Assembly (NCBI GenBank): GCA_003250475.1
Contig: QKGI01000064.1
Span: forward strand, 1,629 to 65,628
Direction: 5' to 3'
DNA length: 64,000 nucleotides
Origin: Bacteroidota bacterium
GTDB lineage: Bacteria > Bacteroidota > Bacteroidia > Bacteroidales > VadinHA17
Made by a program: the position numbers and the translations under genes
Shown: positions 742 to 49,025 of the stretch, in pieces
Numbering within the stretch: the first letter of the stretch is position 1
Layout of the letters: every line of letters begins with the position of its first letter
Notes under the pieces: model-generated
Databases searched by the model: none
What the model was told of the DNA's origin: nothing
What the model saw: only the letters and a program-made list of their open reading frames with translations

Positions 742-751
742 TACGAGACCA

Positions 752-1681: not shown

Positions 1682-1690
1682 TACAGGTAT

Positions 1691-2875
1691 ATGAAGAGAA
1701 AAACAATAATACTCATGGCACTGCTCCCTCTCCTGGCAGCAGGCTGCGCTCAAAGCAACAGGGCCACTGACGGCAGTGTGCAGGATTATATGCCCGACAA
1801 CGCTGTCATAGCCCACCGCGGGACAGTATACTGGGCACCGGAACTGACTGAAGCGGCATTCCGCTGGGCGCGTAACATGGGCGCCGACTACGTCGAGCTT
1901 GACGTCCAGAGGTCAAAAGACAGTGTCCTGATAATAATGCATGACAAGACCTTCAAGCGTACCACAAACGTGGCAGACATTTTTCCCGGAAGGGAGAGCG
2001 ATCCGGTAAGTACATTCACCTTTGAGGAGATAATGCAGCTGGATGCCGGCAGCGCCTTCAACAGAAAGAACCCGGAACAGGCGCTGGAGAGCTTCGCAGG
2101 AGAGGATGTCCTGGCTTTTGAAGATGTCTTCCGCATAGCCGAAGGGAAACGGATAAAGCGTGATGCCGGTGGCAACCGCCTGTTCACAAGGGACGGGAGC
2201 GGGGTATATCACTTCGAATATGAGGCCGACCCCGCAGATAAAGGGCACAGACCGGGAGTGTACATAGAGATGAAGAGCCCTGATGACTACCCGGGCATTG
2301 AGGAGCAGGTATATGACCTGCTGACAGCCATTGACTGGAACCCGCTCGAGGGCGCTATCCCCGCTGCTGACGAGCCCTTCGTCAGAGAAGGCAGGGTAAA
2401 TGTCGGTAACACAAGGGGTAAGATACTGGTACAGTCCTTCTCACGCAACGGTATGATGAACCTGAAGAGAGTATTCAGGGAGGCAGTGCCCGCCAGCTTC
2501 CTGGTGTCAAACCCCAAAACAGATGAATTTGCAAAAGAGGAGGTGATGGACGAGATTGTGAAATATGCGACTGAATGCGGAGCCCAGTTCATAGGTACCA
2601 ACCTGGGTGAGGTGAATGACGGCCTCTCCCCTGCCTTTGCCGGGAAGATCCATGCGGCAGGGCTGAAAGCCAACATATATTCTATCAACACCATCGAACA
2701 GATGGAAAAATATTTCGGCCCGGGCAAAGGGGCCAAAGCCGCTCCGCTGGCTGACGGCATGATCACCAACAGGAGCGACCTGACGATAGATTTCTACGCA
2801 GGCAGGCAGGTGCGCAAATATGGCACGGAGCAGACGCCGCAGGAGGTTCTAGCCGACCTGGGATATAAACAGTAA
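1691..2875 (+). CDS. Glycerophosphodiester phosphodiesterase (GDPD family) lipoprotein
   Basis: Lipobox 'LLAAGCAQ'. GDPD signature 'IAHRGTVYWAPELTEAAF...GADYVELDVQRSKDSVLIIMHD'. Confidence 0.8.
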   Translation: MKRKTIILMALLPLLAAGCAQSNRATDGSVQDYMPDNAVIAHRGTVYWAPELTEAAFRWARNMGADYVELDVQRSKDSVLIIMHDKTFKRTTNVADIFPGRESDPVSTFTFEEIMQLDAGSAFNRKNPEQALESFAGEDVLAFEDVFRIAEGKRIKRDAGGNRLFTRDGSGVYHFEYEADPADKGHRPGVYIEMKSPDDYPGIEEQVYDLLTAIDWNPLEGAIPAADEPFVREGRVNVGNTRGKILVQSFSRNGMMNLKRVFREAVPASFLVSNPKTDEFAKEEVMDEIVKYATECGAQFIGTNLGEVNDGLSPAFAGKIHAAGLKANIYSINTIEQMEKYFGPGKGAKAAPLADGMITNRSDLTIDFYAGRQVRKYGTEQTPQEVLADLGYKQ

Positions 2876-2888
2876 CGGAGAGGGATAG

Positions 2889-4838
2889 ATGCCAGAGATA
2901 AGGAAAATACTAATCATTCTTTTCGTGGCGGTGATGACCGCCTGTGCAGGGTGCAGGGAAGAACCCCTTCCACCAGAGGAGGAAGGACTTAATATTACAG
3001 GTATCTCGATCCCGTCGAGCATCAATGTGGCTCCCGGGGGTGAGATCACCATAACGGGCAAAGGCTTTGCTGCCGGCGACAGGATTGAGTTTGTATTAAC
3101 CAGCGACCCTGGCAAGGTTTACAGCAGCACAGTGACGGCCGTCACCGCCACGGGCGCCACCCTGGCACTGCCTGCAGGTATCTCGTCAGGCTCTTACAGC
3201 CTGACGGTGATTCGCGGTGACGAGAGCATGTTGCTTGGCACACTGACAATAAATGTCATTGCTGACAGTACCATCCCCGACAAGCCCGGGATGACATTAA
3301 AGGGAGTGGTGTATTGTGACGGTGAGGGAGTAGCAGGGGTGGTTGTTTCCGACGGAGTGGAGGTAACGGTTACTGACAGCCAGGGAATATATTACCTCCC
3401 TTCTGCCAAAGCCAACGGTTTTGTCTTCATCTCCCTGCCCGCCAACTATGAGATCGCCGCCAGCGATAACATACCTCAGTTCTTCGCACGGCTGTCGGGA
3501 GGCACTGCTGTTGAACAGCATGACTTCTCACTGCTGCATACCGACAACAGCAAACATGTCGTCATTCCAATGGCAGACTGGCACCTGGCCAACCGCAACA
3601 ACGACCTTACACAGTTTGCTGCCGGGTTTATCCCCGACGTAAATTCTACCATCGGCACCTATACCGCCGAAGGCATAAAGGTATACGGGGTACCCCTGGG
3701 CGACATGACATGGGATCTCTACTGGTACGACAATAATTTCAGGCTGCCGGATTACCTTACCGAGATGAAGAAGGTCAACTGCCAGATGTTCAATGTGATG
3801 GGCAACCATGACAATGATCCGTATGTAGCCTCCGACAGGGGCGCCGAGGAACCGTTCAGGGACATCCTCGGTCCCACATATTACTCCTTTAATCTCGGCG
3901 ATGTCCATTATGTCGTGCTTGATAATGTGCAATATATCAATGCCGGGGGCACGCAGGGGGTTGTGGGCGACCGCGATTACAACGATGTGGTGATCTCTGC
4001 ACAGACCGGCTGGCTGGCAAAGGACCTGGCAGCCGTTACGGATAAGAACAGGCCTCTTGTGATCTTCATGCACACGCAGCTGTATACCAACCCGACACTG
4101 AACGCATCAGGGGAGCAGGTAAGCAGCTTCGCCCTGGATAACGGAAGTACTCTCTATTCGCTCCTAAGCGCTTTCAGCGAGGTGCATGTGGTCACCGGAC
4201 ACACACACATCAATTACAATGTGGAATCAGGTAATGTGACGGAACATAATACTGCCGCAGTATGTGCCACCTGGTGGTGGACCGGCAAGACCGGCTATGC
4301 CGGCAACCATATCTGCAAGGACGGCAGTCCCGGCGGATATGGAGTGTGGGAAGCGGACGGCACAGGGCTGAAATGGTACTATAAGAGTATCGGATATCCG
4401 AAGGACTACCAGTTCAGGAGCTATGATCTCAACACCGTACAGATCACTGCTGCTGCATTCGCTCCCAACTCTACGGATGAAGCGCTGGCTGATTACGCAG
4501 ATGTCTATGCCAGTTCTAACCAGGTCAATGACGTCCTTCTGAATGTATGGGGATATGACCCTGGCTGGACCGTTGAGGTAAAGGAGGGTGAGACTCCTCT
4601 TACAGTTGAGCGGGTGACAGCCAAAGACCCGCTGCACATTATCTCATATGAAGCATTAAGACTGAACGCCGGTGCTGTTCCCACCAGCTCATTTGTCACC
4701 GGTAACACCGCTCACATGTTCAGGGTGAGGGCATCATCGGCTACCTCAACATTGGATATTACCGTTACCGACAGGTTTGGGAATGTGTACAGTGAGACAA
4801 TGACCCGGCCCAAGGAGTTCACATGGTCTATGCAATAA
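2889..4838 (+). CDS. Calcineurin-like metallophosphoesterase lipoprotein with N-terminal Ig-like (IPT/TIG-type) domain
   Basis: Lipobox-like 'VMTACAGC'. Metallophosphatase motifs 'GDMTWD', 'GNHDND', 'FMHTQ', 'GHTHINY'. N-terminal beta-rich region 'ITGISIPSSINVAPGGEITITGKGF'. Confidence 0.75.
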   Translation: MPEIRKILIILFVAVMTACAGCREEPLPPEEEGLNITGISIPSSINVAPGGEITITGKGFAAGDRIEFVLTSDPGKVYSSTVTAVTATGATLALPAGISSGSYSLTVIRGDESMLLGTLTINVIADSTIPDKPGMTLKGVVYCDGEGVAGVVVSDGVEVTVTDSQGIYYLPSAKANGFVFISLPANYEIAASDNIPQFFARLSGGTAVEQHDFSLLHTDNSKHVVIPMADWHLANRNNDLTQFAAGFIPDVNSTIGTYTAEGIKVYGVPLGDMTWDLYWYDNNFRLPDYLTEMKKVNCQMFNVMGNHDNDPYVASDRGAEEPFRDILGPTYYSFNLGDVHYVVLDNVQYINAGGTQGVVGDRDYNDVVISAQTGWLAKDLAAVTDKNRPLVIFMHTQLYTNPTLNASGEQVSSFALDNGSTLYSLLSAFSEVHVVTGHTHINYNVESGNVTEHNTAAVCATWWWTGKTGYAGNHICKDGSPGGYGVWEADGTGLKWYYKSIGYPKDYQFRSYDLNTVQITAAAFAPNSTDEALADYADVYASSNQVNDVLLNVWGYDPGWTVEVKEGETPLTVERVTAKDPLHIISYEALRLNAGAVPTSSFVTGNTAHMFRVRASSATSTLDITVTDRFGNVYSETMTRPKEFTWSMQ

Positions 4839-4872
4839 CCCAATATATATCACAAACTAAAACCACTAATCT

Positions 4873-7800
4873 ATGAAATTCAAACCAGATCTTAAGATTG
4901 TTCTTGCCACTCTCCTGATGGCACTGGTCATGTTGCCGGTGTCGGCGCAGGACAGGCAGGTGACAGGTACAGTTTTTGAGCCGGACGGTGTCACCCCGGT
5001 CTTCGGGGCCACCATAGTGCTTAAAGGGACTGCCACCGGTACCAGCACTGACAGCAAGGGTACCTATTCTATCAGGGTGACGGGCATAAACCCGGTGCTC
5101 GAGATACAGTTCCTGGGCTACATCAAACAGGAGATACCGGTGGGTGACAGGAGTGTCATCAATGTAACACTCCAGGAGGAAGCTATTGAGGTGTCAGCTG
5201 TTGTTGTCACTGCCCTGGGTATCACACGTGAAGAGAAATCTCTCGGATATGCCGTTACCAAGGTTGACAATTCTGATATCACACAGACTGTTGCCAGCAA
5301 CTGGCTCAACGGTATGTCAGGCAAGGTTGCCGGTCTTACCTTCAACAGCGCCAGTACCGGGCCCATAGCATCGATGCGCGTAACCCTCCGCGGGGACCAG
5401 TCGCTCAATTACGGTGCCAACGAAGCTCTCTTTGTCGTTGACGGCATTCCTATACGGTCAGGGACGACGGCCACCTCCTCAAGCAGTCCGTACACCAACT
5501 CGGGAGCCGACTTCCCCGTTGACTTCGGCAACGGCGCCAGCGACATTAATCCTGATGACATTGAGACCGTCTCGGTACTTAAAGGACCTGCAGCCACTGC
5601 CCTTTACGGCTCGCGCGCTGCCAACGGCGCCATAGTCATAACAACCAAGTCGGGACGCAAAGATAAAGGCATAGGCGTCACCGTCAACTCGTCGATGGTT
5701 GTCGAGAGAGCTGGATACTGGCCTGATTTCCAGACTCAGTATGGCTCCGGCTCAGACATGGGACTGAACGAATTCTGCTTCTGGACACTTGACCCGAGCC
5801 TTGTCGGCACTACCGACTACCCTTCCAGGAACCTCTCGCGTTACGCATGGGGTGAAGAGTTCAGTGAGGACAAGCTCCGTTACCAGTATGCGGGCAAAGA
5901 CTGGGAGACAGGAATGATCACAGCCACTCCTTTCGTTTACCAGGACGACTGGTTCACAGGGATATTCCAGGATGGTGTAACCCTTAACAACTCGATCGCT
6001 ATCAGCGGCAGCAACGGCGAGGGTACCAACACACGTTTCTCGGTCACGGATACACGTAACAAATGGATCCTGCCCAATACCGGGTTCAATAAGCAGGCCT
6101 ATGCTTTTTCCTTTGAAACACCCGTTAACAGATGGGTTGATTTCCAGACGAAAGTAAATTACTATCGTACTCAAAGCGACAATATGCCTATGGCAGGTTA
6201 CCATCAGACAACAGTGATGTATGACCTGATGTGGGGTTACAACTCAAACTCGATGAATGACTGGAAAACCGAATATTTTGAGGGCAGGTTCAACGAGATC
6301 AACAGGCTTGCCACGATATCGGAGAACGGTAATAGTCTCGTTGTTGCAGGCACCGGGTCATACAACCCCTACAGGGTACTGTATGAAGAGCTTAACTCCA
6401 CTGACAAGGACAGGGTGTTCGGCACCGCAGGCTTTACCGCCCGCCTGGCCGAAGGGCTCACTCTCGATGTCAAATCGGGAATGGATATGAGTACAGAGTT
6501 CCGGACCCAGAGAAAACCCAAGCTGACGTATGTCTGGAACAATGGTTTCTACAGGGAACAGTCGCTTGCCAATTTTGAGTTTAACACCGACTTCCTGCTA
6601 AGATACAAAAAGGATTTCTTTGAAGGCAGGCTTACCTCAACCGCCGCCTTTGGCGGAAATAATATGGTCCGTAAGTACAGAAGCAACACTGTTCAGCTCG
6701 ATGAACTGGATATTGATGGCATATACCATACCAATAATGTCCCCACGGGCATCAACCCCGATCCTTCAAACTACAGGAGTATCAAGGTGATTAACAGCCT
6801 GTACGGCTTCCTTAACTTCGGATGGAGAAACACCTATTTCCTTGACATAACAGGCCGTAACGACTGGTCGAGCACACTGTCAAGAGATTACTGGTCATAC
6901 TTCTACCCCTCGGTTGCTGCGAGCGTGTTGCTCGACCAGGCTTTCGACTTCGCAACAAACCTTCCGTTTGTCTCCTTTGCCAAGCTTAGGCTGTCATGGG
7001 CAAATGTCGGTAATGACACCAATCCCTATTCACTTGACCAGTACTACTCGGCCTCGTCAATCAGTGGCGGTCACACACTGCCGTCAGACATTACCGACCC
7101 GATGATCAAGCCTGAGAATATTGAGAGCTGGGAGCTGGGACTTGATGCCAGGTTCCTGAAAAACAGGCTTGGTTTTGACCTGGCGCTTTATAACTCGTCA
7201 GCCACAAACCAGATAATAGAAGTTGATGTTGACCCGATAGTAGGTATCTCATCAATAGAAATAAACTCGGGAGAGATCAACAACAAGGGTATCGAGGTAT
7301 CTATGTTTGCCACACCGGTCAGGACCAGGGACTTTACCTGGGACCTTAACTTCAACTGGGCAAAGAACAAGAACACGCTGGTCAGCATGAATGAGGGTTA
7401 TAACCCGGACCAGCCTATTGAAACCAACATGGGAACAACCATCGGGGGAAGATTACACGTCTATTCATATGTCGGGCAGGAGATGCATCAGATTTATGGC
7501 TTTGCCCTCCAGAGAGCCCCGGAAGGTTCTTACTATATCGATGACAACGGCAAGCAGGTCGACTGTTCAGGCATGGTCATCCTTGATGCCACGACAGGCC
7601 TGCCCTCGGTGGAGGCAACGGCTGACCACTTCCTCGGAAAGGTCAACCCCGACTGGAGAGGCGGCTTCAGCACCTCACTGAGATACAAGGGCCTTTCACT
7701 GAACATGGTATTCTCATACCAGTGGGGCGGACACAGGTATTCCGTCACAGACGGTATCCTCTCATACCAGGGCAAGCTCACCAACTCACTTGAAGGCCGT

Positions 7801-8205
7801 TATGACGGGATCGTGGCAGAAGGAGTAAATGTGCTGTCAACAAACGACGACGGTTCTGCTGTATGCCAGGTCAACAATACCGTAACGAGCAATATCTACA
7901 CCTACTACCAGTCGCGTACACTCGATCGTTACCTGGGTGAAGCCCACACATACAGCACCTCTTTCCTTAAGTTCAAGGAGGTAAGACTTGAATACGCCCT
8001 TCCTGCTGCACTCTGTAGCAAGACAAACGTGCTGCAGAATGCCAGCATTGCTGTCTTTGCCACCAATATATTCAGCTGGGATAAGTGGCCGCAGTTCGAT
8101 CCTGAAGGTGGTATAATGACCGGCACTAATGTCTTCAACGGTATTGAAGCCGGTGCGTTCCCTATGACCCGCACCCTGGGTGTTAACCTGAAACTGTCAT
8201 TCTAA
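4873..8205 (+). CDS. SusC/RagA-type TonB-dependent outer-membrane transporter
   Basis: 1110 aa. CarboxypepD_reg-like N-terminus 'VTGTVFEPDGVTPVFGATIVLKGT'. Plug motifs 'DGIPI' and 'SVLKGPAATALYGSRAANGAIVITTKSG'. C-terminal beta-barrel ending in F. Followed by SusD. Confidence 0.9.
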   Translation: MKFKPDLKIVLATLLMALVMLPVSAQDRQVTGTVFEPDGVTPVFGATIVLKGTATGTSTDSKGTYSIRVTGINPVLEIQFLGYIKQEIPVGDRSVINVTLQEEAIEVSAVVVTALGITREEKSLGYAVTKVDNSDITQTVASNWLNGMSGKVAGLTFNSASTGPIASMRVTLRGDQSLNYGANEALFVVDGIPIRSGTTATSSSSPYTNSGADFPVDFGNGASDINPDDIETVSVLKGPAATALYGSRAANGAIVITTKSGRKDKGIGVTVNSSMVVERAGYWPDFQTQYGSGSDMGLNEFCFWTLDPSLVGTTDYPSRNLSRYAWGEEFSEDKLRYQYAGKDWETGMITATPFVYQDDWFTGIFQDGVTLNNSIAISGSNGEGTNTRFSVTDTRNKWILPNTGFNKQAYAFSFETPVNRWVDFQTKVNYYRTQSDNMPMAGYHQTTVMYDLMWGYNSNSMNDWKTEYFEGRFNEINRLATISENGNSLVVAGTGSYNPYRVLYEELNSTDKDRVFGTAGFTARLAEGLTLDVKSGMDMSTEFRTQRKPKLTYVWNNGFYREQSLANFEFNTDFLLRYKKDFFEGRLTSTAAFGGNNMVRKYRSNTVQLDELDIDGIYHTNNVPTGINPDPSNYRSIKVINSLYGFLNFGWRNTYFLDITGRNDWSSTLSRDYWSYFYPSVAASVLLDQAFDFATNLPFVSFAKLRLSWANVGNDTNPYSLDQYYSASSISGGHTLPSDITDPMIKPENIESWELGLDARFLKNRLGFDLALYNSSATNQIIEVDVDPIVGISSIEINSGEINNKGIEVSMFATPVRTRDFTWDLNFNWAKNKNTLVSMNEGYNPDQPIETNMGTTIGGRLHVYSYVGQEMHQIYGFALQRAPEGSYYIDDNGKQVDCSGMVILDATTGLPSVEATADHFLGKVNPDWRGGFSTSLRYKGLSLNMVFSYQWGGHRYSVTDGILSYQGKLTNSLEGRYDGIVAEGVNVLSTNDDGSAVCQVNNTVTSNIYTYYQSRTLDRYLGEAHTYSTSFLKFKEVRLEYALPAALCSKTNVLQNASIAVFATNIFSWDKWPQFDPEGGIMTGTNVFNGIEAGAFPMTRTLGVNLKLSF

Positions 8206-8222
8206 TCATTAACTGACACGAA

Positions 8223-9800
8223 ATGAAAAAGTTGAAAATAATCATAATATGTGGGTTTGTACTGGGTTCACTCTTCTCATGCACAAGAAATTTTGAAGAG
8301 ATCAATACCAATCCCAACAAGACTACCGTGGGCATGATTCAAGCCTCCGGTATGTTCGAGCCTATACTTTACAACTCAGCCAACCAGTGGCTTTACCGTA
8401 CCTGGTACTATAACGATGAGCTCATCCAGTTCACCGCTTTCACCGGGGGTGTGACAAGAAGGGAGCACCAGTATTTCCTTGAGGATTCAAGAGACTGGTA
8501 CGGGTTCTGGAACCACTATGCCACCTATGGCAAGAACGTGGACCATATGTACGATCTGGCCGTGGAACAGGGAGACGAATCACTTGAGGCCATAGCACTC
8601 ACTTTCAAGGTATTGTTCTTTGCCAACATGACTGACATGTTCGGCAGCGTGCCCTATGTTGAGGCCTTTACAGGAAGAAAGCTGGGCGGCACCCTCACAC
8701 CGGTGTTCAACACCCAGGAGGAGATATACCAGCTGATGTTCGAAGACCTTGAGGAGGCCAACGCCATCTATGCCACCAACCCTGTCTTCCTGATCCCCTC
8801 GATGGACGGTATGTACGGAGGTAACATGGCTGCCTGGAGAAAGTTCAACAACTCACTCTACCTGAGGCTCCTCTGCAGGATAAGCGGCAGGTCGGAGATG
8901 AATGCAGGGGCGAAAATGACAGAGATACTCAACAATCCTTCAACGTATCCTATTTTTACTTCCAACGCTGATAATGCTGCAGTGAAATTCACAGGCAATG
9001 ATCCGTATATAAGTGAATTCGGGACTACGACAGAGAGTGACTTCACCTCCAGCGGGAGGAAGCTGACTGAACAGCTTATCAAAATGACCGTCGAGACTGA
9101 CATCAACGGCAACCAGGTCTATGTTGACCCCCGTCTGCCGGTCATCGGCAAGAAAAACCCGAATGCCGTTGTCAACCCCGATAACATATGGAAAGGAACG
9201 GTATCAGGATGCACTGATCTCGAGAGAAGTACTGTCGACATCGGCACCTCATGGCTCAATTACAGGATTTTCTGCAGGAAGGATGCCCCGGCCACATATA
9301 TGGATTATGCAGAGACGCGTTTCATCTTTGCTGAAGCTGCACTTAAGGGCTACATCGCAGGAGGACAGGCTGCTGCAAAGAACTATTATGAAGCCGGAGT
9401 AAGGGCATCGATGGAGAAATGGTCGGAGCAGGGAGCCTACTCAGACCCTGCAGTTACTATCACCTCCGCAGAGGTTGACGCCTACCTGGCCTCTTCTCTC
9501 GGCTCATGGGATCTTGCTGCCGACAAGGAAGAGTTCCTCGGCAACCAGAAATACCTGGCTCTCTTCTGGGTGGGTATGGAGGCCTATCATGAATACCGCA
9601 GGACCGGCTACCCGGTGCTGACCATCGGGGAGGGCACGATCTATAACGACCATGTTCTGCCCACCCGCCTAGGATACCCCAATATCACCATCACTACCAA
9701 CAGTGCAAATGCAAATGCAGCCCTGGAGGAGATGGGTGGCCCGAACGACATGAAGACACCGGTATGGTGGAGCAAACAGGCTATCACCGGAGGCAAATAA
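8223..9800 (+). CDS. SusD-like outer-membrane lipoprotein
   Basis: Lipobox 'GSLFSC'. 525 aa TPR-like helical protein immediately downstream of SusC. 'YHEYRRTGYP' motif typical of the SusD-like_2/3 group. Confidence 0.85.
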   Translation: MKKLKIIIICGFVLGSLFSCTRNFEEINTNPNKTTVGMIQASGMFEPILYNSANQWLYRTWYYNDELIQFTAFTGGVTRREHQYFLEDSRDWYGFWNHYATYGKNVDHMYDLAVEQGDESLEAIALTFKVLFFANMTDMFGSVPYVEAFTGRKLGGTLTPVFNTQEEIYQLMFEDLEEANAIYATNPVFLIPSMDGMYGGNMAAWRKFNNSLYLRLLCRISGRSEMNAGAKMTEILNNPSTYPIFTSNADNAAVKFTGNDPYISEFGTTTESDFTSSGRKLTEQLIKMTVETDINGNQVYVDPRLPVIGKKNPNAVVNPDNIWKGTVSGCTDLERSTVDIGTSWLNYRIFCRKDAPATYMDYAETRFIFAEAALKGYIAGGQAAAKNYYEAGVRASMEKWSEQGAYSDPAVTITSAEVDAYLASSLGSWDLAADKEEFLGNQKYLALFWVGMEAYHEYRRTGYPVLTIGEGTIYNDHVLPTRLGYPNITITTNSANANAALEEMGGPNDMKTPVWWSKQAITGGK

Positions 9801-9818
9801 CCGCAAAAATATCTAGAG

Positions 9819-11057
9819 ATGAATAAAAATATTTCCAACATATTGATAAGGAGAGCATGGCATATCTTTCCGTTGTTGTTGCTCCCCGTACTCCTTCTCA
9901 CCTCCTGTGAGGAGAAGATTGTCCAGGAGGATCCGTACTTTTCAATAGAGGGAGACCCTACAGGACTGACCGCAACCGTGAAGGCAAAAACCGCGAGTTA
10001 TGTTGTACGCTCCAACAGGCACTGGGACGTGGTGAAGCAGGGTGACTCCGACTGGGTGAAGGCCTTCCCTGCTAAGGGTGATGACGATGGCATTTTCAAG
10101 ATTATAGTAGATGCAAACCCGACTTTCTACACCCGTACCGAGAACTTTGCCTTTGTTGTCGACGGCGAAGAACAGCCTGTGCTTTTCAGGGTTGACCAGG
10201 AGGCAAACGTGCCATACATAACCATGCCTGACACCGTGACAGTACTTGCAGCAGGAGGTGAATTCACTGTCACAGGCACTGCCAATGTTCCGTGGAACTA
10301 CTCACTGGTCAACGGCTCGTGGCTGACTGAAGTAGGCACCACCGCGACATCCATTACATTCAGCGCTACTGAAAACACAAGCATCGATAAGCGTTATGCC
10401 ACACTGACAGTGACTTCGATAGAGTTCCCCTCCGTTTCCGCGACAGTTACCCTTACACAATCTGCAGGTACAGTGGTGCTTGAGGAAAACTTCAGCTGGC
10501 TTGAATATGGTAGTGCGGTATTCTACACCACCACAGGCGAGACCCGCTATGACAACTGGACACAGGAGCAGAAGGATATGGGATGGGTCAGCGAGGTCAG
10601 CCCGATAGCCACGGCAGGAGGCACGCCTCTCTGTTACGCCCGCCAGGGATTTGTCAAGCTGGGTAAGACAGGATATGGAGGCGACCTTTACTCCCCTGCC
10701 CTGTCAAAGATCGTCGGCACAACCGACGTTCTCGTGACCTTCAAGGCTATACCCTATATGACAGCTGCCGGGACGAAGGATGATAACTTCCTCAATATAT
10801 TCGTCATAGGCCCCGGAACGATAAGCCAGAGCCAGTTTATCATCGACAACTGGCCCGTTTACCCGGCCGAGTCGGTCGAAGCATATTGCATAGGGATGTG
10901 GAGTGCACCGGAGGCTACACGTACTTTCACCATTACAGGCGCGACTGCCGAGACCAAGATAAAATTCCTCGGCGGCGACTATGACCTTGTAGGTGTCGGT
11001 GCGGGTAAGAACCGTATTTTCCTTGATGATGTCAAGGTTGAGATCATACTGCCATAG
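9819..11057 (+). CDS. PUL-associated surface lipoprotein with BACON-like repeats, function unknown
   Basis: Lipobox 'LLLTSCEE'. Two Ig-like/BACON-like segments ('RSNRHWDVVKQGDSDWVKAFPAKGDDDG', 'ANVPWNYSLVNGSWLTEVG...ATLTVTS'). Positioned as third gene after SusC/D. Confidence 0.5.
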   Translation: MNKNISNILIRRAWHIFPLLLLPVLLLTSCEEKIVQEDPYFSIEGDPTGLTATVKAKTASYVVRSNRHWDVVKQGDSDWVKAFPAKGDDDGIFKIIVDANPTFYTRTENFAFVVDGEEQPVLFRVDQEANVPYITMPDTVTVLAAGGEFTVTGTANVPWNYSLVNGSWLTEVGTTATSITFSATENTSIDKRYATLTVTSIEFPSVSATVTLTQSAGTVVLEENFSWLEYGSAVFYTTTGETRYDNWTQEQKDMGWVSEVSPIATAGGTPLCYARQGFVKLGKTGYGGDLYSPALSKIVGTTDVLVTFKAIPYMTAAGTKDDNFLNIFVIGPGTISQSQFIIDNWPVYPAESVEAYCIGMWSAPEATRTFTITGATAETKIKFLGGDYDLVGVGAGKNRIFLDDVKVEIILP

Positions 11058-39893: not shown

Positions 39894-39927
39894 AGCCCCG
39901 CACTGAATACAGGCGGGGCTTTTTTTT
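39894..39927. terminator. Bidirectional intrinsic terminator between convergent genes
   Basis: 'AGCCCCGC actgaatacag GCGGGGCT TTTTTTT': 8-bp stem, T-run, and 'TTAAA' upstream. Confidence 0.7.
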
Positions 39928-40607: not shown

Positions 40608-40630
40608 TTTATCGTTATGATTGTTGGTTC
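40600..40630. repeat. Left arm of perfect 31-bp inverted repeat (partner 42121-42151)
   Basis: 'TTTTTCATTTTATCGTTATGATTGTTGGTTC' is the exact reverse complement of 42121-42151. Contains the ATG of gene 39927..40607. Confidence 0.9.
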
Positions 40631-40637
40631 TTTATAA

Positions 40638-40725
40638 GTCTGAAGGTCCGAAGGTCTGGTGTCTGAAGGTCTGAGGTCTGAAGGTCTGAAGTCTTGCGGT
40701 CCTGCAGTCTTGCAGTCTTGCAGAC
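40638..40725 (+). repeat. Mosaic GTC-unit array A
   Basis: Read directly: GTCTGAAG GTCCGAAG GTCTGGT GTCTGAAG GTCTGAG GTCTGAAG GTCTGAA GTCTTGCG GTCCTGCA GTCTTGCA GTCTTGCA GAC, followed by GCGAAGC at 40729-40735. Confidence 0.9.
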
Positions 40726-40919
40726 TTGGCGAAGCGTAGCGGGGATCTTCGACCGTAAGGTAGGGACAGTCTTCCTGTGCCGTTGTCTGCCACCTTTAAA
40801 AGGAGGTTTTTGACCCCTTTTACTATATTCCTCAATTATCATACCGTAAAGTTAGTGATTTAACTGAGAGCCTTTTCAGTCTTTGTACTCACTCCATAAA
40901 CAGATGCTAATACTATGTT

Positions 40920-40980
40920 TGTAACAACTTTGTAACATTTGTGTAATCCGAATGTAACAAAAGTGCAGGTATTTTGTAAT
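40920..40980 (+). promoter_or_regulatory. Phased TGTAA(C/T) direct repeats, candidate Pho-box array/promoter of the porin-pst cluster
   Basis: TGTAAC at 40920, 40931 and 40953; TGTAAT at 40942 and 40975. All are on an exact 11-bp register. The last ends 25 nt before the porin ATG (41005). Confidence 0.4.
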
Positions 40981-41004
40981 GTCAAACCATCAACTTCAAT
41001 TCTG

Positions 41005-42000
41005 ATGAAAATTAAGATCTTATCACTAATGTTCACCCTTCTTGTTCTGACAGCAGTTACAGCCTCAGCCCAGGATAGTGACGAATTCAAACCGGGAGGT
41101 AAAATGTACGGGCTGTTTTTCACCAACTTCCATACCACTTATGAAGGCGGGTCAAACAGTTCTGCTTTTGAAGTCACACGTTCATACCTTGGATTCGAAT
41201 ACAGGTTCTCCGAAGAGATATCTACGCGTATCCTGTATGACGGCACAACAAATGTCATTGACGGAAAAACTCTCTATTCGGGATATCTCCGTAATGCCTT
41301 TATCCAGTATAAAAAAGGCAGTTTCATTTTACAGGGCGGCCTCATAGGTATGGAGCAGGTCTCGGCGATGGAAAAGATATGGTCATACCGGTTCATATCA
41401 AAGCCTCCGATTGATTATTCAGGGATGGTACAGGTTGCCGACCTCGGTGTAAGTACAAAGTTCAACGCCGTGGAATGGCTCTCGGTTGATATCTCTGTCA
41501 CGCAGGGACGCGGGGTTAAGAACCTGGTTGCTGACGGCACCTATAAGCTGTCTGCAGGCTTTACCATGACTCCGGCCACCCACATGATCATAAGAGGCTT
41601 TTATGATATGATGGGATCATCAGGCAGCATGCAGCGAACAGCAAGCATCACTGCGGCATATACCGGACCCCGGCTTACTGCCGGCGCTGAATATTTCAGG
41701 CAGGACAACAACAAGATGACTGTGGGAAACGACTATTCGGGTGTCAGTTTCTTCACCAGTATCCCCCTCGCAGAAAAGGTGAACCTGTTTGCCAGGTATG
41801 ACCGCATAAGCTCTACCATACCTGAAGGAGAAACAGATCCGTGGAATATTACAAAAGACGGGTCATATCTTTTTGCAGGTATTGCCTTCTCGCCGGCACG
41901 AAATATAAGAATATCACCTAACTTTATTGGGTATATTCCATCAGACAGCGAATCGGATATGAGGAGTACAATAGGATTGAACGTGGAGGCAAGATTCTGA
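41005..42000 (+). CDS. Outer-membrane porin, probably phosphate-selective porin O/P-like
   Basis: Start at 'MKIKILSLMFTLLVLTAVTASAQ'. Alternating beta-strand pattern with C-terminal F. Immediately upstream of pstS. Confidence 0.5.
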   Translation: MKIKILSLMFTLLVLTAVTASAQDSDEFKPGGKMYGLFFTNFHTTYEGGSNSSAFEVTRSYLGFEYRFSEEISTRILYDGTTNVIDGKTLYSGYLRNAFIQYKKGSFILQGGLIGMEQVSAMEKIWSYRFISKPPIDYSGMVQVADLGVSTKFNAVEWLSVDISVTQGRGVKNLVADGTYKLSAGFTMTPATHMIIRGFYDMMGSSGSMQRTASITAAYTGPRLTAGAEYFRQDNNKMTVGNDYSGVSFFTSIPLAEKVNLFARYDRISSTIPEGETDPWNITKDGSYLFAGIAFSPARNIRISPNFIGYIPSDSESDMRSTIGLNVEARF

Positions 42001-42058
42001 CAGTTAAATACTTAACCCTGATCAGGCACTGACATAATGAAACAACCGGCCATAAAAA

Positions 42059-42116
42059 GACCTTCAGACCTTCAGACACCAGACCTTCAGACCTCAGACC
42101 TTCAGACCTTCAGACC
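42059..42116 (-). repeat. Mosaic GTC-unit array B (inverted relative to A)
   Basis: 'GAC CTTCAGAC CTTCAGAC ACCAGAC CTTCAGAC CTCAGAC CTTCAGAC CTTCAGAC C', the reverse complement of GTCTGAAG-type units. Confidence 0.9.
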
Positions 42117-42120
42117 AAAA

Positions 42121-42201: not shown

Positions 42202-43173
42202 GTGACTCTCTCGGCTGCCGGGGCGACTTTCCCACAGCCGTTCTATAACCTAGCATTCAAGAAACACAGTGAGGCAGGTGGACCCCTTATCAACTACGGA
42301 GGAATAGGCTCCGGAGGGGGCATCAAGAGTCTGCGTGACCAGGTAGTTGACTTCGGCGCAACCGATGCCTACCTCTCCGATGCCGAGCTGGCGGAGATGC
42401 CGGGTGAGGTGGTACACATACCCACATGCATAGGCGCCGTGGTCATAGCCTACAACCTTCCCGGGGTGAACGGGCTGCAACTTACTCCTGCCCTCCTTGA
42501 AGGTATCTTTCTTGGCACTATAAAGACATGGAACGATCCGCAGATTACAGCCGTCAACCCGGATATCACGTTGCCGGCCATGGACATCACAGTTGTGTAC
42601 CGCTCTGACGGAAGCGGCACCACATACATCTTCAGTGACTATATGTCGAAGGTAAGCGCAGTCTGGAATGAAGAGATGGGCACCGGCAAAGCTCTTAACT
42701 GGCCGGCAGGTATCGGAGCCAAGGGTAACCCCGGCGTTGCAGGCACCATCAGCCAGAGCCAGGGGACGGTAGGCTATATCGGCTTTGAATATGCTTACGC
42801 GCAGAAAATCCCGATGGCCAGGGTGATGAACAGCTCGGGCTACTTTATCGAGCCTACGCTTGACTCATTCACTGCCGCGGCTGATGTCGACATGCCTGCT
42901 GACACGAGGGTGATGATAACCAACTCGCCAAACAGCGAGGCCTACCCTATCACCAGCTTCACATGGATCATCATGTACAGGGAGCAGTCGTACGGCAGGC
43001 ACTCCCGCGAAGCAGCCGAGGCAACAGTACAAACTGTCAAATGGCTTACCGGTCCCGACGCACAGGCCATAGCCACCAGCGTGCATTATGCCTCACTGCC
43101 TCAGAACGCCGTTGACCAGGCAGCCATATTGCTGAAGGGTATCACATTTGACGGAGAACCACTCCTGAAGTAA
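42202..43173 (+). CDS. pstS: Phosphate ABC transporter substrate-binding protein PstS, 5' end anomalous (no signal peptide encoded)
   Basis: 'SAAGATFPQPFY', 'GGIGSGGGI', 'YRSDGSGTTYIF' are PstS motifs. The listed start is a GTG. The same frame upstream reads '*KIRAASCGSGPSTGKGSK' (a lipobox relic) and is closed by a TGA at 42145. Confidence 0.8.
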   Translation: MTLSAAGATFPQPFYNLAFKKHSEAGGPLINYGGIGSGGGIKSLRDQVVDFGATDAYLSDAELAEMPGEVVHIPTCIGAVVIAYNLPGVNGLQLTPALLEGIFLGTIKTWNDPQITAVNPDITLPAMDITVVYRSDGSGTTYIFSDYMSKVSAVWNEEMGTGKALNWPAGIGAKGNPGVAGTISQSQGTVGYIGFEYAYAQKIPMARVMNSSGYFIEPTLDSFTAAADVDMPADTRVMITNSPNSEAYPITSFTWIIMYREQSYGRHSREAAEATVQTVKWLTGPDAQAIATSVHYASLPQNAVDQAAILLKGITFDGEPLLK

Positions 43174-43177
43174 CGGG

Positions 43178-44029
43178 ATGGCAGGCGACAGGATAACAAA
43201 AGCCCTGCTCTTCATCTCGTCACTGACAATACTGCTGCTCAGTGCCGGAATAATCCTCTCCCTTGCCGGAGGGGCTGTTCCGGCTTTTAAGGAATACGGG
43301 ATAGGGTTCATCACCTCCACGAAATGGAACCCCACAGCCGGAAGCGAGGAGTACGGGGCGATGTCGTTCATTGCCGGCACGGTAATCACCTCGATACTGG
43401 CACTGATAATATGTATCCCTATGGCCTTCTCCACCTCCCTGTTCATAGCGGAATACTACAGAGGCACGCGGACAGCTGGTATACTGCGCAGCCTTGTAGA
43501 TCTCCTGGCAGGTATCCCATCGATTGTTTACGGATTCTGGGGGTTCTATGCTCTCCGGCCGTTGCTTGTAAGCACCGGTCTTACCGACCAGGGGTTCGGC
43601 ATATTCACTGCCTCGCTGGTGCTGGCGATAATGATCGTCCCCTATGCCACCTCTCTCAGCGCCGAGATCATCTCCATGGTGCCCTCCGAACTCAAGGAGG
43701 CCGCCTACTCCCTCGGGGCGACACGCCGGGAGGTTATTTTCCACGTGGTCATCCCTTCAGCACGCTCGGGTATAATAGCCAGCTTCATCCTGGCACTGGG
43801 CCGTGCACTCGGTGAGACCATGGCAGTTACGATGCTTATCGGCAACGCCAACATAATGCCCCGGGGACTCTTTGCGCCGGGTAACACAATGGCATCGGTC
43901 ATCGCCAACCAGTTCGGAGAGGCTGACGGACTGAAGATGAGCGCCCTGATTGCAATAGGGCTGCTGCTCTTCCTGATAACCGCCCTGGTCAACGCCCTTG
44001 GTAAAATGATCATCAAACGCTTTGCCTGA
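43178..44029 (+). CDS. pstC: Phosphate ABC transporter permease PstC
   Basis: 6-TM permease with 'EAAYSLGATRREVIFHVVIPSA' EAA loop. Operon position after pstS. Confidence 0.85.
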   Translation: MAGDRITKALLFISSLTILLLSAGIILSLAGGAVPAFKEYGIGFITSTKWNPTAGSEEYGAMSFIAGTVITSILALIICIPMAFSTSLFIAEYYRGTRTAGILRSLVDLLAGIPSIVYGFWGFYALRPLLVSTGLTDQGFGIFTASLVLAIMIVPYATSLSAEIISMVPSELKEAAYSLGATRREVIFHVVIPSARSGIIASFILALGRALGETMAVTMLIGNANIMPRGLFAPGNTMASVIANQFGEADGLKMSALIAIGLLLFLITALVNALGKMIIKRFA

Positions 44030-44918
44030 CAGACAGATGAAGAAGGAACTGAGTGACAATATAGGCAGGCGTAACCGTGCAAACGGCTGGTTCAGATCTC
44101 TGGTCATTGCAGGATCGGTGATCACGATTATTCCGATATTCCTTATCGTCGGCAACCTCGCCGTCAAGGGGTACCGCCAGATAAACCTGGCTTTCTTCAC
44201 CGAGCCGGCCCCCGATACTTTCCAGGCGATGATGGCAGCCTCATCCGGCGAGATCATCCCGGGCGGTATTGCCAACGGTCTCACAGGATCACTCCTCATG
44301 GTGCTTATGGCATCCCTGATAGCTGTCCCCCTGGGGCTCATGACAGGGATATACATCTATGAGAACAGCACCAGGAGGTATGCCGCTTTCATCAGGAGCC
44401 TGACAGAGATATTACAGGGGGTGCCGTCAATCATACTTGGTATCATAGCCTACTTATGGATCGTTAAGAACATCACCAGGGGCTATTCTGCCCTGGCTGG
44501 CAGCGTTTCCCTGACCATCATGATGCTGCCGCTTATAATACGGTCAACGGAGGAGACGATGCGTATGATACCGGTGACCATCAGGGAGGCAGCCTTTGCC
44601 CTGGGCACCCCCTATTACAAGATGATATACAAGATACTTATACCCGTCAGCTTCAGCGGTCTTGCCACCGGCATACTGCTGGCCCTCTCGAGGATACTGG
44701 GAGAGACAGCCCCGCTCATGCTCACTGCCCTGGGAAGCCCTGCCATCAGCCTTGACATCACCCGGCCCGTCAGTGCAGTGCCACTGCTTATATGGGATTT
44801 TTACAATGATCCCAATATGGTCAACCTGGTATGGAGTGCATCACTATTCCTTATGGCCTTTGTTCTCTCAATGAACCTGCTGGCGCGCAGCGTGGCCTCA
44901 AAACATAAATATATCTGA
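44022..44918 (+). CDS. pstA: Phosphate ABC transporter permease PstA
   Basis: 'REAAFALGTPYYKMIYKILIP' EAA loop. 8-bp overlap with pstC. Confidence 0.85.
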   Translation: MPDRQMKKELSDNIGRRNRANGWFRSLVIAGSVITIIPIFLIVGNLAVKGYRQINLAFFTEPAPDTFQAMMAASSGEIIPGGIANGLTGSLLMVLMASLIAVPLGLMTGIYIYENSTRRYAAFIRSLTEILQGVPSIILGIIAYLWIVKNITRGYSALAGSVSLTIMMLPLIIRSTEETMRMIPVTIREAAFALGTPYYKMIYKILIPVSFSGLATGILLALSRILGETAPLMLTALGSPAISLDITRPVSAVPLLIWDFYNDPNMVNLVWSASLFLMAFVLSMNLLARSVASKHKYI

Positions 44919-44923
44919 TACAG

Positions 44924-45700
44924 ATGAACGATACCCCTGACAGCGAACATGTACTTACAATAAAAGAGCTCTCTATCGCCTATGAGCCGGGCCGTTATGC
45001 CGTCAATGACGTCAGTGCCGCCATCAGGCGTAACAGCATCACCGCCATTATGGGCCCCTCGGGTTGCGGCAAGAGCACCCTGCTGCGGGCCATGAACCGC
45101 ATGCATGAACTCTACCCGAACATTGAGACTAAAGGCGACATCCTGCTTGACGGCCAGAGCATATTCTCCATGTCAGTTATCGAGCTCAGACGAAAGGTCG
45201 GCATGGTCTTCCAGAGACCGAACCCCTTTCCCAACATGACAATTTATGAAAATGTGGTTGCTGGTTTCAGCCTGAACGACATAAGGATGAAGAAGAGTCA
45301 GCGTGACGACATAGTGGAGGAGGCTCTCAGAAACGTTGCACTATGGGATGAGGTCAAGGAATCGTTATACAGGAAGGGGACATTCCTTTCCGGGGGACAG
45401 CAGCAGCGGTTGTGCGTGGCAAGAGCCATAGCCTTCAACCCGGAGGTACTGCTGCTCGATGAACCGACCTCGGCCCTTGATCCTGTCGCCACCTCCAAGA
45501 TAGAGGATCTCCTCGGCGAACTGAAGAAAAAATATACGCTTGTCCTTGTAACCCATAACATGTCACAGGCGGCAAGGATATCAGACGACTCCATGTTCAT
45601 GTACCTGGGCGAGCTCGTCGAGTCGGGACGTACGGAGATACTCTTTACCAACCCGAAGGATTCACGCACCGAAGCATATCTTACGGGGAAATTCGGATGA
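44924..45700 (+). CDS. pstB: Phosphate ABC transporter ATP-binding protein PstB
   Basis: Walker A 'GPSGCGKST', signature 'LSGGQQQRLCVARA', Walker B 'LLLDEPTSALD'. PstB-typical 'MVFQRPNPFP'. Confidence 0.9.
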   Translation: MNDTPDSEHVLTIKELSIAYEPGRYAVNDVSAAIRRNSITAIMGPSGCGKSTLLRAMNRMHELYPNIETKGDILLDGQSIFSMSVIELRRKVGMVFQRPNPFPNMTIYENVVAGFSLNDIRMKKSQRDDIVEEALRNVALWDEVKESLYRKGTFLSGGQQQRLCVARAIAFNPEVLLLDEPTSALDPVATSKIEDLLGELKKKYTLVLVTHNMSQAARISDDSMFMYLGELVESGRTEILFTNPKDSRTEAYLTGKFG

Positions 45701-45739
45701 TTATGAGACATTTTCATACATTTGTTAAAACGCCTTACC

Positions 45740-46432
45740 ATGAGTGAGAAAAAAGAACTGGCATTGAACGAGATACAGGCCAGCTTCAACGAGATGGCAA
45801 ACATGGTCCTTCACCAGCTTACTCTCCTGGAGAAGCTGATGAATACGGCCGATGAGAAATCATTTAATGAGATTGCTGCAGAGATTGACACTGCCGAGAA
45901 CCGTATTGACAACCTTGAGGTTGTCATCAGTGAGCAGTTCACCAACACCATTGTACTGTATCAGCCCGTAGCCTCCGACGTGCGCCGGCTTGTGGCAATA
46001 TACCGTATGACTATCAACATTGAACGTATCGGTGACCGTATCGTCAACCTATGCAGGATCATCAGGACTATCCGTAATAGCAATGAATACGCCTCTGTCT
46101 CCATGCTGATATCCAACATGCTGACTTCCGGCACCATTATGGTTGAGAAATCTCTCCTCTCTTTCATTAACTCGGATCCGGACTATGCCATATGGACTAT
46201 CAAGAACGACTCGGTGGTTGACGAGATGAACCATAAGCTTCTGCTGGGCCATATCCGTAAGGAGGTTTTAGACGACAAGACAAGGCTGATGCTGATGAGT
46301 TATATCGAGCTGAAGGATATGATCTCCAATATTGAAAGGATTGCCGATCATGCCACCAACATTGCCGAAGCCTCAATCTACTCCCTCCAGGGAACAGACA
46401 TCAGGCATACAGGCATAGGCAAGGAAGAATGA
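45740..46432 (+). CDS. phoU: Phosphate signalling regulator PhoU
   Basis: Two PhoU repeats with 'INIERIGDRIVNL' and 'SNIERIADHATNIAE'. ATG at 45740 preferred over the listed TTG. Confidence 0.85.
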   Translation: MSEKKELALNEIQASFNEMANMVLHQLTLLEKLMNTADEKSFNEIAAEIDTAENRIDNLEVVISEQFTNTIVLYQPVASDVRRLVAIYRMTINIERIGDRIVNLCRIIRTIRNSNEYASVSMLISNMLTSGTIMVEKSLLSFINSDPDYAIWTIKNDSVVDEMNHKLLLGHIRKEVLDDKTRLMLMSYIELKDMISNIERIADHATNIAEASIYSLQGTDIRHTGIGKEE

Positions 46433-46574: not shown

Positions 46575-47252
46575 ATGAATGAAAGAAAAAAAATACTGGC
46601 AGTTGATGATGAGGAGGATATCCTTGAGATCCTCTCCTTCAACCTAGCTGCTGAAGGATATGACGTAGACACCTGTACCTCGGCGGAGGAGGCCCTGCGT
46701 AAGAACCTGGCATCATATGACCTGCTTATCCTGGATGTGATGATGAGTCATGTCTCCGGCTTCCGGCTGGCGGAAAAAATCAGGAAAGAACTCTCACTGG
46801 CAACACCTGTAATATTCCTCACCGCCAGGGATACGGAAAACGACAGGATCACAGGATTCAGCCTCGGCGCTGACGACTACCTGGCCAAACCATTCAGTAT
46901 CAGGGAACTGACTGCAAGAGTGAAGGCCGTACTGCGCAGGTCGGCACCGGCCCGCATGACCAGGACCACACCGGCAGGCAGCTTCACCATCGATACCGAA
47001 AACAAGACTGTCTATTCTGACGGGAAACCCCTGGGGTTGACCCGCAAGGAGTATGAGATACTCTCGCTGTTATTGCGCAGCGAGGGCAAGATCTATTCAA
47101 GGAACGAGATACTGTCAAGAGCATGGGGCGATGATGTCATTGTCACTGACAGGACAGTTGACGTTACGATTGCGCGCATCAGGAAGAAGCTTGGTGTGAA
47201 TGGCAACATGATTAAAAATAAATCGGGTTACGGATATTACCTGGGCGAATGA
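46575..47252 (+). CDS. OmpR/PhoB-family response regulator (PhoB-like by context)
   Basis: Receiver 'ILAVDDEEDILE...LLILDVMM'. Winged-helix 'LTRKEYEILSLL...RTVDVTIARIRKKL'. Downstream of pstSCAB-phoU. Confidence 0.8.
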   Translation: MNERKKILAVDDEEDILEILSFNLAAEGYDVDTCTSAEEALRKNLASYDLLILDVMMSHVSGFRLAEKIRKELSLATPVIFLTARDTENDRITGFSLGADDYLAKPFSIRELTARVKAVLRRSAPARMTRTTPAGSFTIDTENKTVYSDGKPLGLTRKEYEILSLLLRSEGKIYSRNEILSRAWGDDVIVTDRTVDVTIARIRKKLGVNGNMIKNKSGYGYYLGE

Positions 47253-47264
47253 AAATATGTTCCT

Positions 47265-49025
47265 ATGACAGAAAGTAGAAGCTACAGACGAAAACTTTTC
47301 CTTTACTACTTCAGCATCTTCCTGCTATTCTCAGTGGTGATTCTTGCATTCCAGTACCATCGTGAGAAAAAGATCAGGATTGCTGCCCTCGATACCAGGC
47401 TGAATGACATGACATTGCTTGTCGATAACTATATAAAAGTGAACTCCCTGTTTGAGACTGGTAACTACAGGCTTATAGACTCCATCTTCAACCTGATACC
47501 TGTACCCGACCTGCGCATCACCATTATAGCCATTGACGGCACAGTACTATATGACAGTTCGGTGGACGACTGGTCTGCTATGGAGAATCACCTGAGGCGG
47601 CCAGAGGTGGGTAAATCGCTTTATTCACCTTACAGCACGGCAGTGCGACGGTCAGACTCTACAGGCAAGGAGTATTACTATCTGTCGAGATACTTCAGCA
47701 ACTACTATATCAGGCTTGCGGAAGAGTATAACATCAATATAAAAGGATTTCTCAAGCGTGAGCAGGTGTTCCTGCTCTTTATGGGGGTAGTGTTTCTATG
47801 TATATGGGCGCTCCTGGCTGCCGTAACACGCCAGATGGGAAAAAGCATCACCATGCTGCGCGATTTTGCTGCACGTATGCGACGCGGTGAAGGAAACGAC
47901 AGGTCGATCATCTTCCCCAGGAACGAGATCGGAGAGACAGGTAAGGAGATTGTAAGAATCTACAAGAACCTTGCGCAGAACACTGCCGAGCTCACCCTCC
48001 AGAAGGAAAAGCTCTTCAGGCATCTCCATGTCCTGAATGAGGGTGTAGCCTTCTGTGCTCCTGACAGGACAGTGACCTTCTCAAACAGCCACTTCATGGT
48101 GTTCCTGAATGCCATCACCGGAGAACACTCTCTCACACCCGACGGCTTCATCGACCATCCCCTTTTTGCCGGGATAAAATCGTTCCTCGACAACCATCAG
48201 AATACCGATGTCCGCAAACAGGAGAATCCATCCACCGAGATAAGGGCGGAAAAGGGAGGCAAATATTTCGGCATAAGATGCATTCTCTTTAACGACAACA
48301 GTTTCGAGGTTGTCATTACTGATATCACCAGGGCTGAACAGAACAGGGCCATGCGGCAGCAGATGACCTCCAACATAGCTCATGAGCTCAAGACCCCGAT
48401 AGCTTCAGTGAGAGGATACCTTGAAACACTGATAGTCAACAGGTCGCTCGATGAAGAGAAGAAACTGCACTTCCTTGAGAAAGCTCTGTCACAGTCTACC
48501 CGGCTCACGGATCTTATCAATGATATAGTCACCCTGAACAAGCTTGATGAGACAGGCAGCAACTTCCCGTTTGAAGATGTTGATATTGCAGGGGTGGTAA
48601 GAGAGGTGAATGACAACCTCCAGACAGCCATAGGGAAGAAGAAAATAACCGTTGAAATCGACATAGAACCGGGTACCGTTATCAATGCCAACAGGTCGCT
48701 GATAGTCTCAGTATTCCAGAACCTGATGGAAAATGCCATTGCCTATGCCGGTGAGAATGTCACGGTAACGGTCAGGAGCATTGCCGGGGAGCCGGGATTC
48801 AGCACATTCTCATTTGCTGATAACGGCATCGGGATACCCGAGGAGCATCAGCCAAGGATCTTCGAGAGGTTCTACAGGATTGACGACGGCCGTTCACGAA
48901 AGAGCGGTGGCACAGGGCTTGGACTTGCCATTGTCAAGAATGCCGTGCTGCTTCATAAGGGAGAAATCTCCGTACGAAGCAGGCCCGGAGGAGGAGTTGA
49001 ATTCATCATTGCAATACCGAAGTAA
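47265..49025 (+). CDS. Sensor histidine kinase (PhoR-like by context)
   Basis: Two TM segments flanking an extracytoplasmic domain. H-box 'SNIAHELKTPIASVRGY'. 'FQNLMENAIAY', 'DNGIGIP', 'GGTGLGLAIVK'. Confidence 0.8.
   Translation: MTESRSYRRKLFLYYFSIFLLFSVVILAFQYHREKKIRIAALDTRLNDMTLLVDNYIKVNSLFETGNYRLIDSIFNLIPVPDLRITIIAIDGTVLYDSSVDDWSAMENHLRRPEVGKSLYSPYSTAVRRSDSTGKEYYYLSRYFSNYYIRLAEEYNINIKGFLKREQVFLLFMGVVFLCIWALLAAVTRQMGKSITMLRDFAARMRRGEGNDRSIIFPRNEIGETGKEIVRIYKNLAQNTAELTLQKEKLFRHLHVLNEGVAFCAPDRTVTFSNSHFMVFLNAITGEHSLTPDGFIDHPLFAGIKSFLDNHQNTDVRKQENPSTEIRAEKGGKYFGIRCILFNDNSFEVVITDITRAEQNRAMRQQMTSNIAHELKTPIASVRGYLETLIVNRSLDEEKKLHFLEKALSQSTRLTDLINDIVTLNKLDETGSNFPFEDVDIAGVVREVNDNLQTAIGKKKITVEIDIEPGTVINANRSLIVSVFQNLMENAIAYAGENVTVTVRSIAGEPGFSTFSFADNGIGIPEEHQPRIFERFYRIDDGRSRKSGGTGLGLAIVKNAVLLHKGEISVRSRPGGGVEFIIAIPK

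Follow-up and report, generated by a model that had tools for sequence, protein, structure and literature searches.

A phased array of TGTAAC repeats as the probable PhoB-activated promoter of a porin-pstSCAB-phoU operon in a Bacteroidota bacterium

In Proteobacteria, Firmicutes and Actinobacteria the control of genes by phosphate starvation has been worked out well, and the Bacteroidota of gut, soil and sea are major recyclers of organic phosphorus. The pstS promoter of Escherichia coli MG1655 reads CTGTCAT-aaaa-CTGTCAT-attc-CTTACAT-ataa-CTGTCAC, followed by 10 bp and TATTTT. The PhoP core of Bacillus subtilis is TT(A/T/C)ACA in direct repeats with a period of about 11 bp, and four repeats serve two dimers. 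Within the Bacteroidota, PhoB of Bacteroides fragilis (BF1576) binds a 512-bp fragment of the pst promoter in EMSA, the sequence of the box not being defined (Wakimoto et al. 2013, PMC3547664), and in a phoB deletion mutant the pst transcripts are down 16- to 540-fold (PMC3547664). No published sequence of a Bacteroidota Pho box was found in the open full-text literature, subscription journals and regulon databases being outside our reach.

The window analysed here is a stretch of 64 kb (C35:1629-65628) from a Bacteroidota assembly of 3.47 Mb in 168 contigs, and its features are collected in Table 1. Reading of positions 40600-41200 placed TGTAAC at 40920, 40931 and 40953 and TGTAAT at 40942 and 40975, which bears out the original prediction of five TGTAAC/TGTAAT hexamers in an exact 11-bp register. 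The skipped register at 40964 is TGCAGG, and 24 nt lie between the hexamer at 40975 and the porin ATG at 41005. The single hexamer TGTAAY is without enrichment in the 64-kb window (62 observed, 51 expected); the phased pair TGTAAYN5TGTAAY occurs three times against 0.01 expected, always within the array, and none of 100 shuffles of the window reached three pairs. A strict motif search of the whole assembly returned no 11-bp-spaced TGTAAY pairs outside the three of the pst array, while a four-register scan (<=4 mismatches) gave the pst site and one weak site, in the promoter of a receptor gene on C164. When the scan was anchored on the whole architecture, the pst site scored 42.8, compared with a maximum of 20.3 at off-register control shifts. 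The pst array thus has what marks a Pho box, a core of 6-7 bp that recurs head to tail, at least twice, with a period of 11 bp.

Table 1. Features of the porin-pst locus and of the organophosphate operon; positions are those of the window
Feature	Position	Strand	Basis
Candidate second Pho operon (organophosphate): glpT (3' part), HAD hydrolase, GDPD phosphodiesterase, metallophosphoesterase, SusC-like, SusD-like, BACON	1..11057	+	
Putative distal Pho box: R1 TTGTAAC (40919-25) and R2 TTGTAAC (40930-36)	40919..40936	+	11-bp period, conservation
Putative proximal Pho box: R3 GTGTAAT (40941-47, weakest) and R4 ATGTAAC (40952-58)	40941..40958	+	in place of -33 element
Non-conserved 10-bp spacer from R4 to core promoter element, with the TGCAGG register	40959..40968	+	about 0 information in columns 41-48
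Predicted -7 promoter element GTATTTTG, TTTG at 40973-76	40969..40976	+	phylum alignment TAnnTTTGCA
Fifth hexamer TGTAAT, overlapping the -7 box and the start region	40975..40980	+	not conserved as a hexamer
Conserved leader GTCAAACCATCAA, 5' UTR	40981..40993	+	genus orthologs and leader of the C164 receptor
Porin-like protein, 331 aa, signal peptide, first gene of operon	41005..42000	+	structure model
pstS (42202-43173), pstC (43178-44029), pstA (44022-44918), pstB (44924-45700), phoU (45722-46432)	42202..46432	+	Pfam and NCBIfam
PhoB response regulator, presumed binder	46575..47252	+	NF053854, 300.8 bits (cut-off 270)
PhoR sensor kinase	47265..49025	+	NF053855, 612 bits (cut-off 500)

The full layout of the promoter is TTGTAAC-aact-TTGTAAC-attt-GTGTAAT-ccga-ATGTAAC, followed by 10 bp and GTATTTTG, and R4 begins exactly 20 nt before the TTTG of the -7 element. 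It shares with the E. coli pstS promoter the four head-to-tail repeats, the 11-bp period, the degenerate third repeat, the 10-bp gap, the absence of a functional -35/-33 element, the TGT..A core and the pstSCAB-phoU genes downstream. By resemblance to the cores TGTCA and TTAACA it falls among known Pho boxes, TGTAAC being one mismatch from E. coli TGTCAC. Position 4 of the box, on the other hand, is A here (TGTAAC) and C in E. coli (TGTCAT/C), a porin gene lies between promoter and pstS, and the core element is a TAnnTTTG -7 box instead of a sigma-70 -10 hexamer, so that the sigma partner differs from that of E. coli. With the PhoP core of B. subtilis the resemblance lies in the four repeats, in the replacement of the upstream promoter element and in the unit itself, since the Bacteroidota repeat reads (G/T)TAACA one to two bases further along and many repeats are exactly TTAACA; the Gram-positive host and the sigma-A -10 promoter are different. 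The regulator of B. fragilis is an ortholog of the one encoded here, as judged by the NCBIfam equivalog for Bacteroides PhoB.

The sequence GTATTTTG at 40969-76 we take to be the Bacteroidota -7 box; it is one base off the consensus TAnnTTTG, which Bayley et al. reportedly gave in 2000. No TTTG is present at the -33 position of the pst promoter, that is about 19-21 bp upstream of the -7 box; 28 bp separate the nearest one (40938-41) from the TA. The site therefore lacks the full pattern of a housekeeping promoter of the -33/-7 type, as the -7-like box is there and the -33 TTTG is missing, and this combination fits an activator-dependent promoter. The repeats replace the upstream promoter element and end about 10 bp before a -10-type element, whose identity as a -7 box is taken from the consensus.

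Footprinting of the pst/porin upstream regions, which had been proposed along with the original prediction, came out in its favour within the genus and across the phylum. In 13 same-genus orthologous upstream regions that carry the array, repeats 1, 2 and 4 are kept as TGTAAC or TGTCAC (the latter at repeat 2 in relatives), repeat 3 is looser (TGTAAT, TATAAC or CTTAAC), and there is no constraint on the spacers or on the skipped register. The TTTG of 40973-76 is also kept in the genus, while the fifth hexamer varies, as TTTGTATT or TTTGCATT, with TGTATT, TGCATT or TGCAGT at its position in relatives. For the phylum, named genomes were scanned with PstC as the anchor, which gave 80 loci from Bacteroidales families, Marinilabiliales, Chitinophagales, Sphingobacteriales, Ignavibacteria, Balneolales and some outgroups, 77 of which extend far enough upstream. 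In 31 of these 77 the best four-register array had <=4 mismatches (controls: 1 on the reverse strand, 0 in shuffled and 0 in downstream sequence), and TTTG stood exactly 53 bp after R1 of the best array in 39 of the 77 (controls: 0, 0 and 1 in the same order). The consensus unit from 46 non-redundant pst promoters, nearly all from Bacteroidota, is TTTGTAACAtt, with the information peaking on T-A-A-C and amounting to 6.9 bits for R1 and 6.1 bits for R2. Moreover, columns 49-58 of these 46 sites read TAnnTTTGCA, and because the flanking TA and CA had not been used in the selection of the sites, the last TTTG can be assigned to the -7 box.

Ignavibacteria and Balneolales show the same spacing, TTAACA repeats are common across the phylum, and loci from MAGs labelled Bacteroides have weaker TGAAAC/TTTAAC repeats at the same offset; one deltaproteobacterial pst locus also has TGTAAC. 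Judged from these alignments, the same arrangement appears to serve as the pst promoter across the Bacteroidota and related lineages of the FCB group. A strongly lineage-specific Pho box, as had been put forward from the hexamer, does not agree with this: TGTAAC is a single base away from the TGTCAC of E. coli, TGTCAC itself is found at repeat 2 of relatives, and the deltaproteobacterial locus has the same hexamer. By its sequence the TGTAAC core departs only slightly from the Pho boxes already known.

The presence of a PhoB-like regulator and kinase after pstSCAB-phoU, also part of the original prediction, is borne out by matches above the cut-offs of NF053854 and NF053855, the NCBIfam equivalogs for Bacteroides PhoB and PhoR, and only one protein in the genome passes the cut-off of NF053854. 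The genome thus encodes the cognate PhoB/PhoR that a Pho box calls for. PhoB of the window is 36% identical to that of E. coli, with the recognition helix DRTVDVTIARIRK in the former and DRTVDVHIRRLRK in the latter. R193, T194, V197, R201 and R203 of E. coli PhoB are kept, and three others have been exchanged (H198T, R200A and, in the wing, R219S); these residues presumably have the DNA-contact roles described in the literature on PhoB-DNA crystal structures. Taken together, positions 40919-40976 are very probably a PhoB-activated promoter. Of the claim that Pho boxes lie at the porin-pst promoter, the PhoB sites themselves are strongly supported, by the footprinting, the fixed distance to the -7 box, the E. 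coli-like layout, the PhoB/PhoR pair and the arrays of like register before two further operons for phosphorus or transport, whereas their number of five and their strong lineage specificity are not.

The repeats could instead be bound by a different OmpR-family regulator, with pst under another two-component system, and this we regard as quite unlikely. The genome does encode at least five further full-length regulators of the OmpR type, and similar A/T-rich phased repeats of the TTAAC type lie beside other regulator genes on C74 and C46, so that this class of motif is common to the OmpR family. But the array accompanies the pst operon in many families and orders, the sole regulator that passes the PhoB equivalog sits in the same cluster, the layout equals that of the PhoB-dependent pstS promoter of E. 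coli, and PhoB of B. fragilis binds its own pst promoter. With PhoB as the binder, all five hexamers might still be its sites, the fifth being a low-affinity one that limits or represses transcription; the TGTAAT at 40975 keeps the register exactly, and TGTAAT is acceptable at R2-R4 in many taxa. We consider this very unlikely, since the hexamer at 40975 is unconserved even within the genus (TGTATT or TGCATT), the phylum consensus at that place is TGCA as part of the -7 box, and the register in between (TGCAGG) is not kept either, which leaves the site at 40975 without a dimer partner. The array of five Pho boxes first proposed is thereby reduced to the four conserved ones: the fifth coincides with the -7 element, relatives differ there and the phylum consensus is TTTGCA. 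This TGTAAT belongs, to judge from the alignments, to the -7/start region and is probably not a PhoB site.

A reading without any dedicated regulator, in which the TTTG repeats are stacked -33/-7 core elements or A/T-rich UP-like DNA, can point to three repeats that start with TTTG or TTG and to a last TTTG that is indeed the -7 box. It is highly improbable in view of where the conservation lies, as it peaks on T-A-A-C (1.0-1.75 bits per position) compared with about 0.5 bit for the TT before the hexamer, and Chitinophagales have GGTAAC or CTTAAC without TTTG. In addition, a TTTG is missing where the -33 element would be expected, a tandem winged-helix binder suits the strict 11-bp phasing and the fixed 53-bp offset, and E. 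coli has the same layout with a different type of sigma-factor promoter. The choice between Pho box and -33/-7 elements, as it had been framed at the outset, is a false one: the last TTTG is the -7 element, and the repeats upstream are conserved in TAAC and replace the -33 element. As for an origin by chance, or by recent duplication of functionless repeat DNA, the nearby intergenic DNA does hold further short arrays in tandem, those of the GTCTGAAG type. However, three phased pairs against 0.01 expected, and repeats kept in genus and phylum between diverging spacers, make such an origin almost inconceivable, and the conservation between species effectively refutes it. The four repeats are thus best read as PhoB sites upstream of a -7 box.

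Two further promoters in the genome resemble the pst site. On C164 an operon for a 945-aa TonB-dependent receptor and a Big_2-domain protein has six repeats in the same register upstream, the last register being TGTAAC, followed by 10 bp and then GATATTTG, and this array is kept in nine same-genus loci. The promoter of the organophosphate operon lies outside the window, at C35:814-871, and has TGTAAC-N5-GTTAAC 53-54 bp before AATATTTG; the pair keeps this offset in six of the seven other readable upstream regions of the genus, the seventh (L141) being degenerate. From its promoter sequence this operon is a candidate second Pho operon. Of the phosphate genes at which phased repeats might recur, pst and the organophosphate locus have them and the NPP/PafA-like phosphatase genes have none, and no genome-wide excess was seen. 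In the architecture-anchored scan of the genome, weaker arrays at shift 0 were about as frequent as at the control shifts, pst aside. In a separate count of TTTG at each distance after a repeat pair, the numbers were only weakly raised at 20-21 nt. PhoA and PhoX are absent from the genome, and neither of the two NPP/PafA-like phosphatase genes has an array upstream, so that the support for a regulon comes from the two extra promoters only. Two other scans were set aside. The top intergenic matches of a PWM for repeat pairs were taken as noise, lying mostly before unrelated genes (PFK, PGK, M20 peptidase, Lon, arginine decarboxylase, dnaN), and a degenerate hexamer-pair scan gave 298 matches, mostly intragenic and uninformative.

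Phased repeats were also seen near genes of other regulators. At C74:17019-19334 a histidine kinase gene is followed by the gene for an OmpR-type regulator, the second-best PhoB-like protein of the genome, and the pair has a direct repeat, TATTTAACATT-TTTTTAATCTT, at -106, possibly an autoregulatory site of this regulator. At C46:20420-20470 four TTTTAAC repeats with 10-11-bp spacing lie upstream of an ORF of 156 aa (C46:20509-20979), and the gene of an OmpR-type regulator (C46:18160-18810) is about 1.7 kb away from them.

The gene context claimed at the start, pstSCAB-phoU, is confirmed by Pfam and NCBIfam matches. The first gene of the operon (41005..42000) has no match in Pfam or NCBIfam. 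An AlphaFold model of its 331-aa product (pLDDT 78, pTM 0.74) is a 16-strand barrel, for which Foldseek returned PorB, OmpF and OprP at E values of about 1e-12, the highest TMq among the 50 listed matches being 0.72, for the phosphate porin OprP (2o4v). The protein is accordingly modelled as a 16-strand porin-like outer-membrane beta-barrel. No terminator-like hairpin was found between the porin gene and pstS. The order of promoter, porin gene and pstS, next to a divergent gene for 226 aa, is kept in 13 same-genus genomes. This divergent gene (39927-40607, minus strand) encodes a signal-peptide protein without a family match and always diverges from the Pho promoter in the genus. In one same-genus genome the porin ortholog (L007, G002:C2) is neither preceded by the repeat array nor followed by pstS, and short tandem arrays of the GGACCGGA type lie on the 3' side of its porin gene.

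The genes on either side have their ATGAAAAA starts within the arms of a perfect inverted repeat of 34 nt (40600-40633 and 42118-42151). It is adjoined by GTCTGAAG-type arrays, likewise inverted (40600-40715 and 42058-42151), and with them encloses the Pho promoter and the porin gene; relatives are without the extra ~200 bp. As to the idea of an invertible cassette, the same gene order and orientation in the 13 relatives argues that the present orientation of promoter and porin gene is ancestral. In the window pstS begins at a GTG and lacks a signal peptide, where the relative L002 has the lipoprotein signal MKNRIIFLMVAVALILASCGG. Between 42118 and 42260 an in-frame relic, ..AASCGSG.., remains, with the ATG at 42144 out of frame. 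A deletion, recombination or an artefact of assembly at the repeat arm could account for the loss of the signal. In the leader, TGTCAAACC(A/T)TCAA is conserved in the genus orthologs, and GTCAA(A)CCATCAA is common to the 5' UTRs of the porin gene and of the array-bearing TonB-dependent receptor gene on C164, being conserved in the relatives of both. Only five copies of GTCAA(A)CCATCAA occur in the genome, at sites that include 40981-40993 of the window, C164:42598 and C164:38067, and one of them lies immediately beyond the 3' end of the receptor/Big_2 operon, on the other strand.

By sequence and comparison, the four head-to-tail repeats of the TTTGTAACAtt unit make up two tandem Pho boxes, presumably with one PhoB dimer on each, and the proximal box ends 10 bp before the -7 element, in the place of the absent -33 TTTG. 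We propose that at low phosphate PhoR would phosphorylate PhoB, and that phosphorylated PhoB would fill both boxes cooperatively and recruit RNA polymerase through its sigma factor, and so make up for the absent contact at -33. Transcription would start near 40983, and the transcript may run from the porin gene through pstSCAB-phoU and possibly on into phoBR.

The switch is likely to be an ordinary one with a conventional mechanism, for which no operator sequence from the Bacteroidota appears to be on record. The geometry that joins Pho box and core promoter, with tandem 11-bp repeats of which the last ends 10 bp from the -10 or -7 element, might be an ancient fixed feature of activation by PhoB, left unchanged in the FCB group (Bacteroidota, Ignavibacteria and Balneolales) despite a different promoter for the primary sigma factor (-33 TTTG / -7 TAnnTTTG); the case for and against this reading seems to us evenly balanced. 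If it is true, the contact of PhoB with region 4 of sigma has outlived a change of promoter type. It would also follow that the derived rule, TTTGTAACAtt at offsets of 20+11n before TTTG, makes Pho regulons readable throughout the phylum, gut Bacteroides included. The rule points to members not linked to phosphate before, the TonB-dependent receptor with its Big_2 protein and the organophosphate SusCD locus. A defined box at a fixed distance from the -7 element would permit the prediction of Pho regulons in gut, soil and marine Bacteroidota, would supply phosphate-responsive promoter parts for the engineering of Bacteroides, and would allow one to test how an activator of the PhoB type cooperates with the sigma factor of the Bacteroidota, which is an unusual one.
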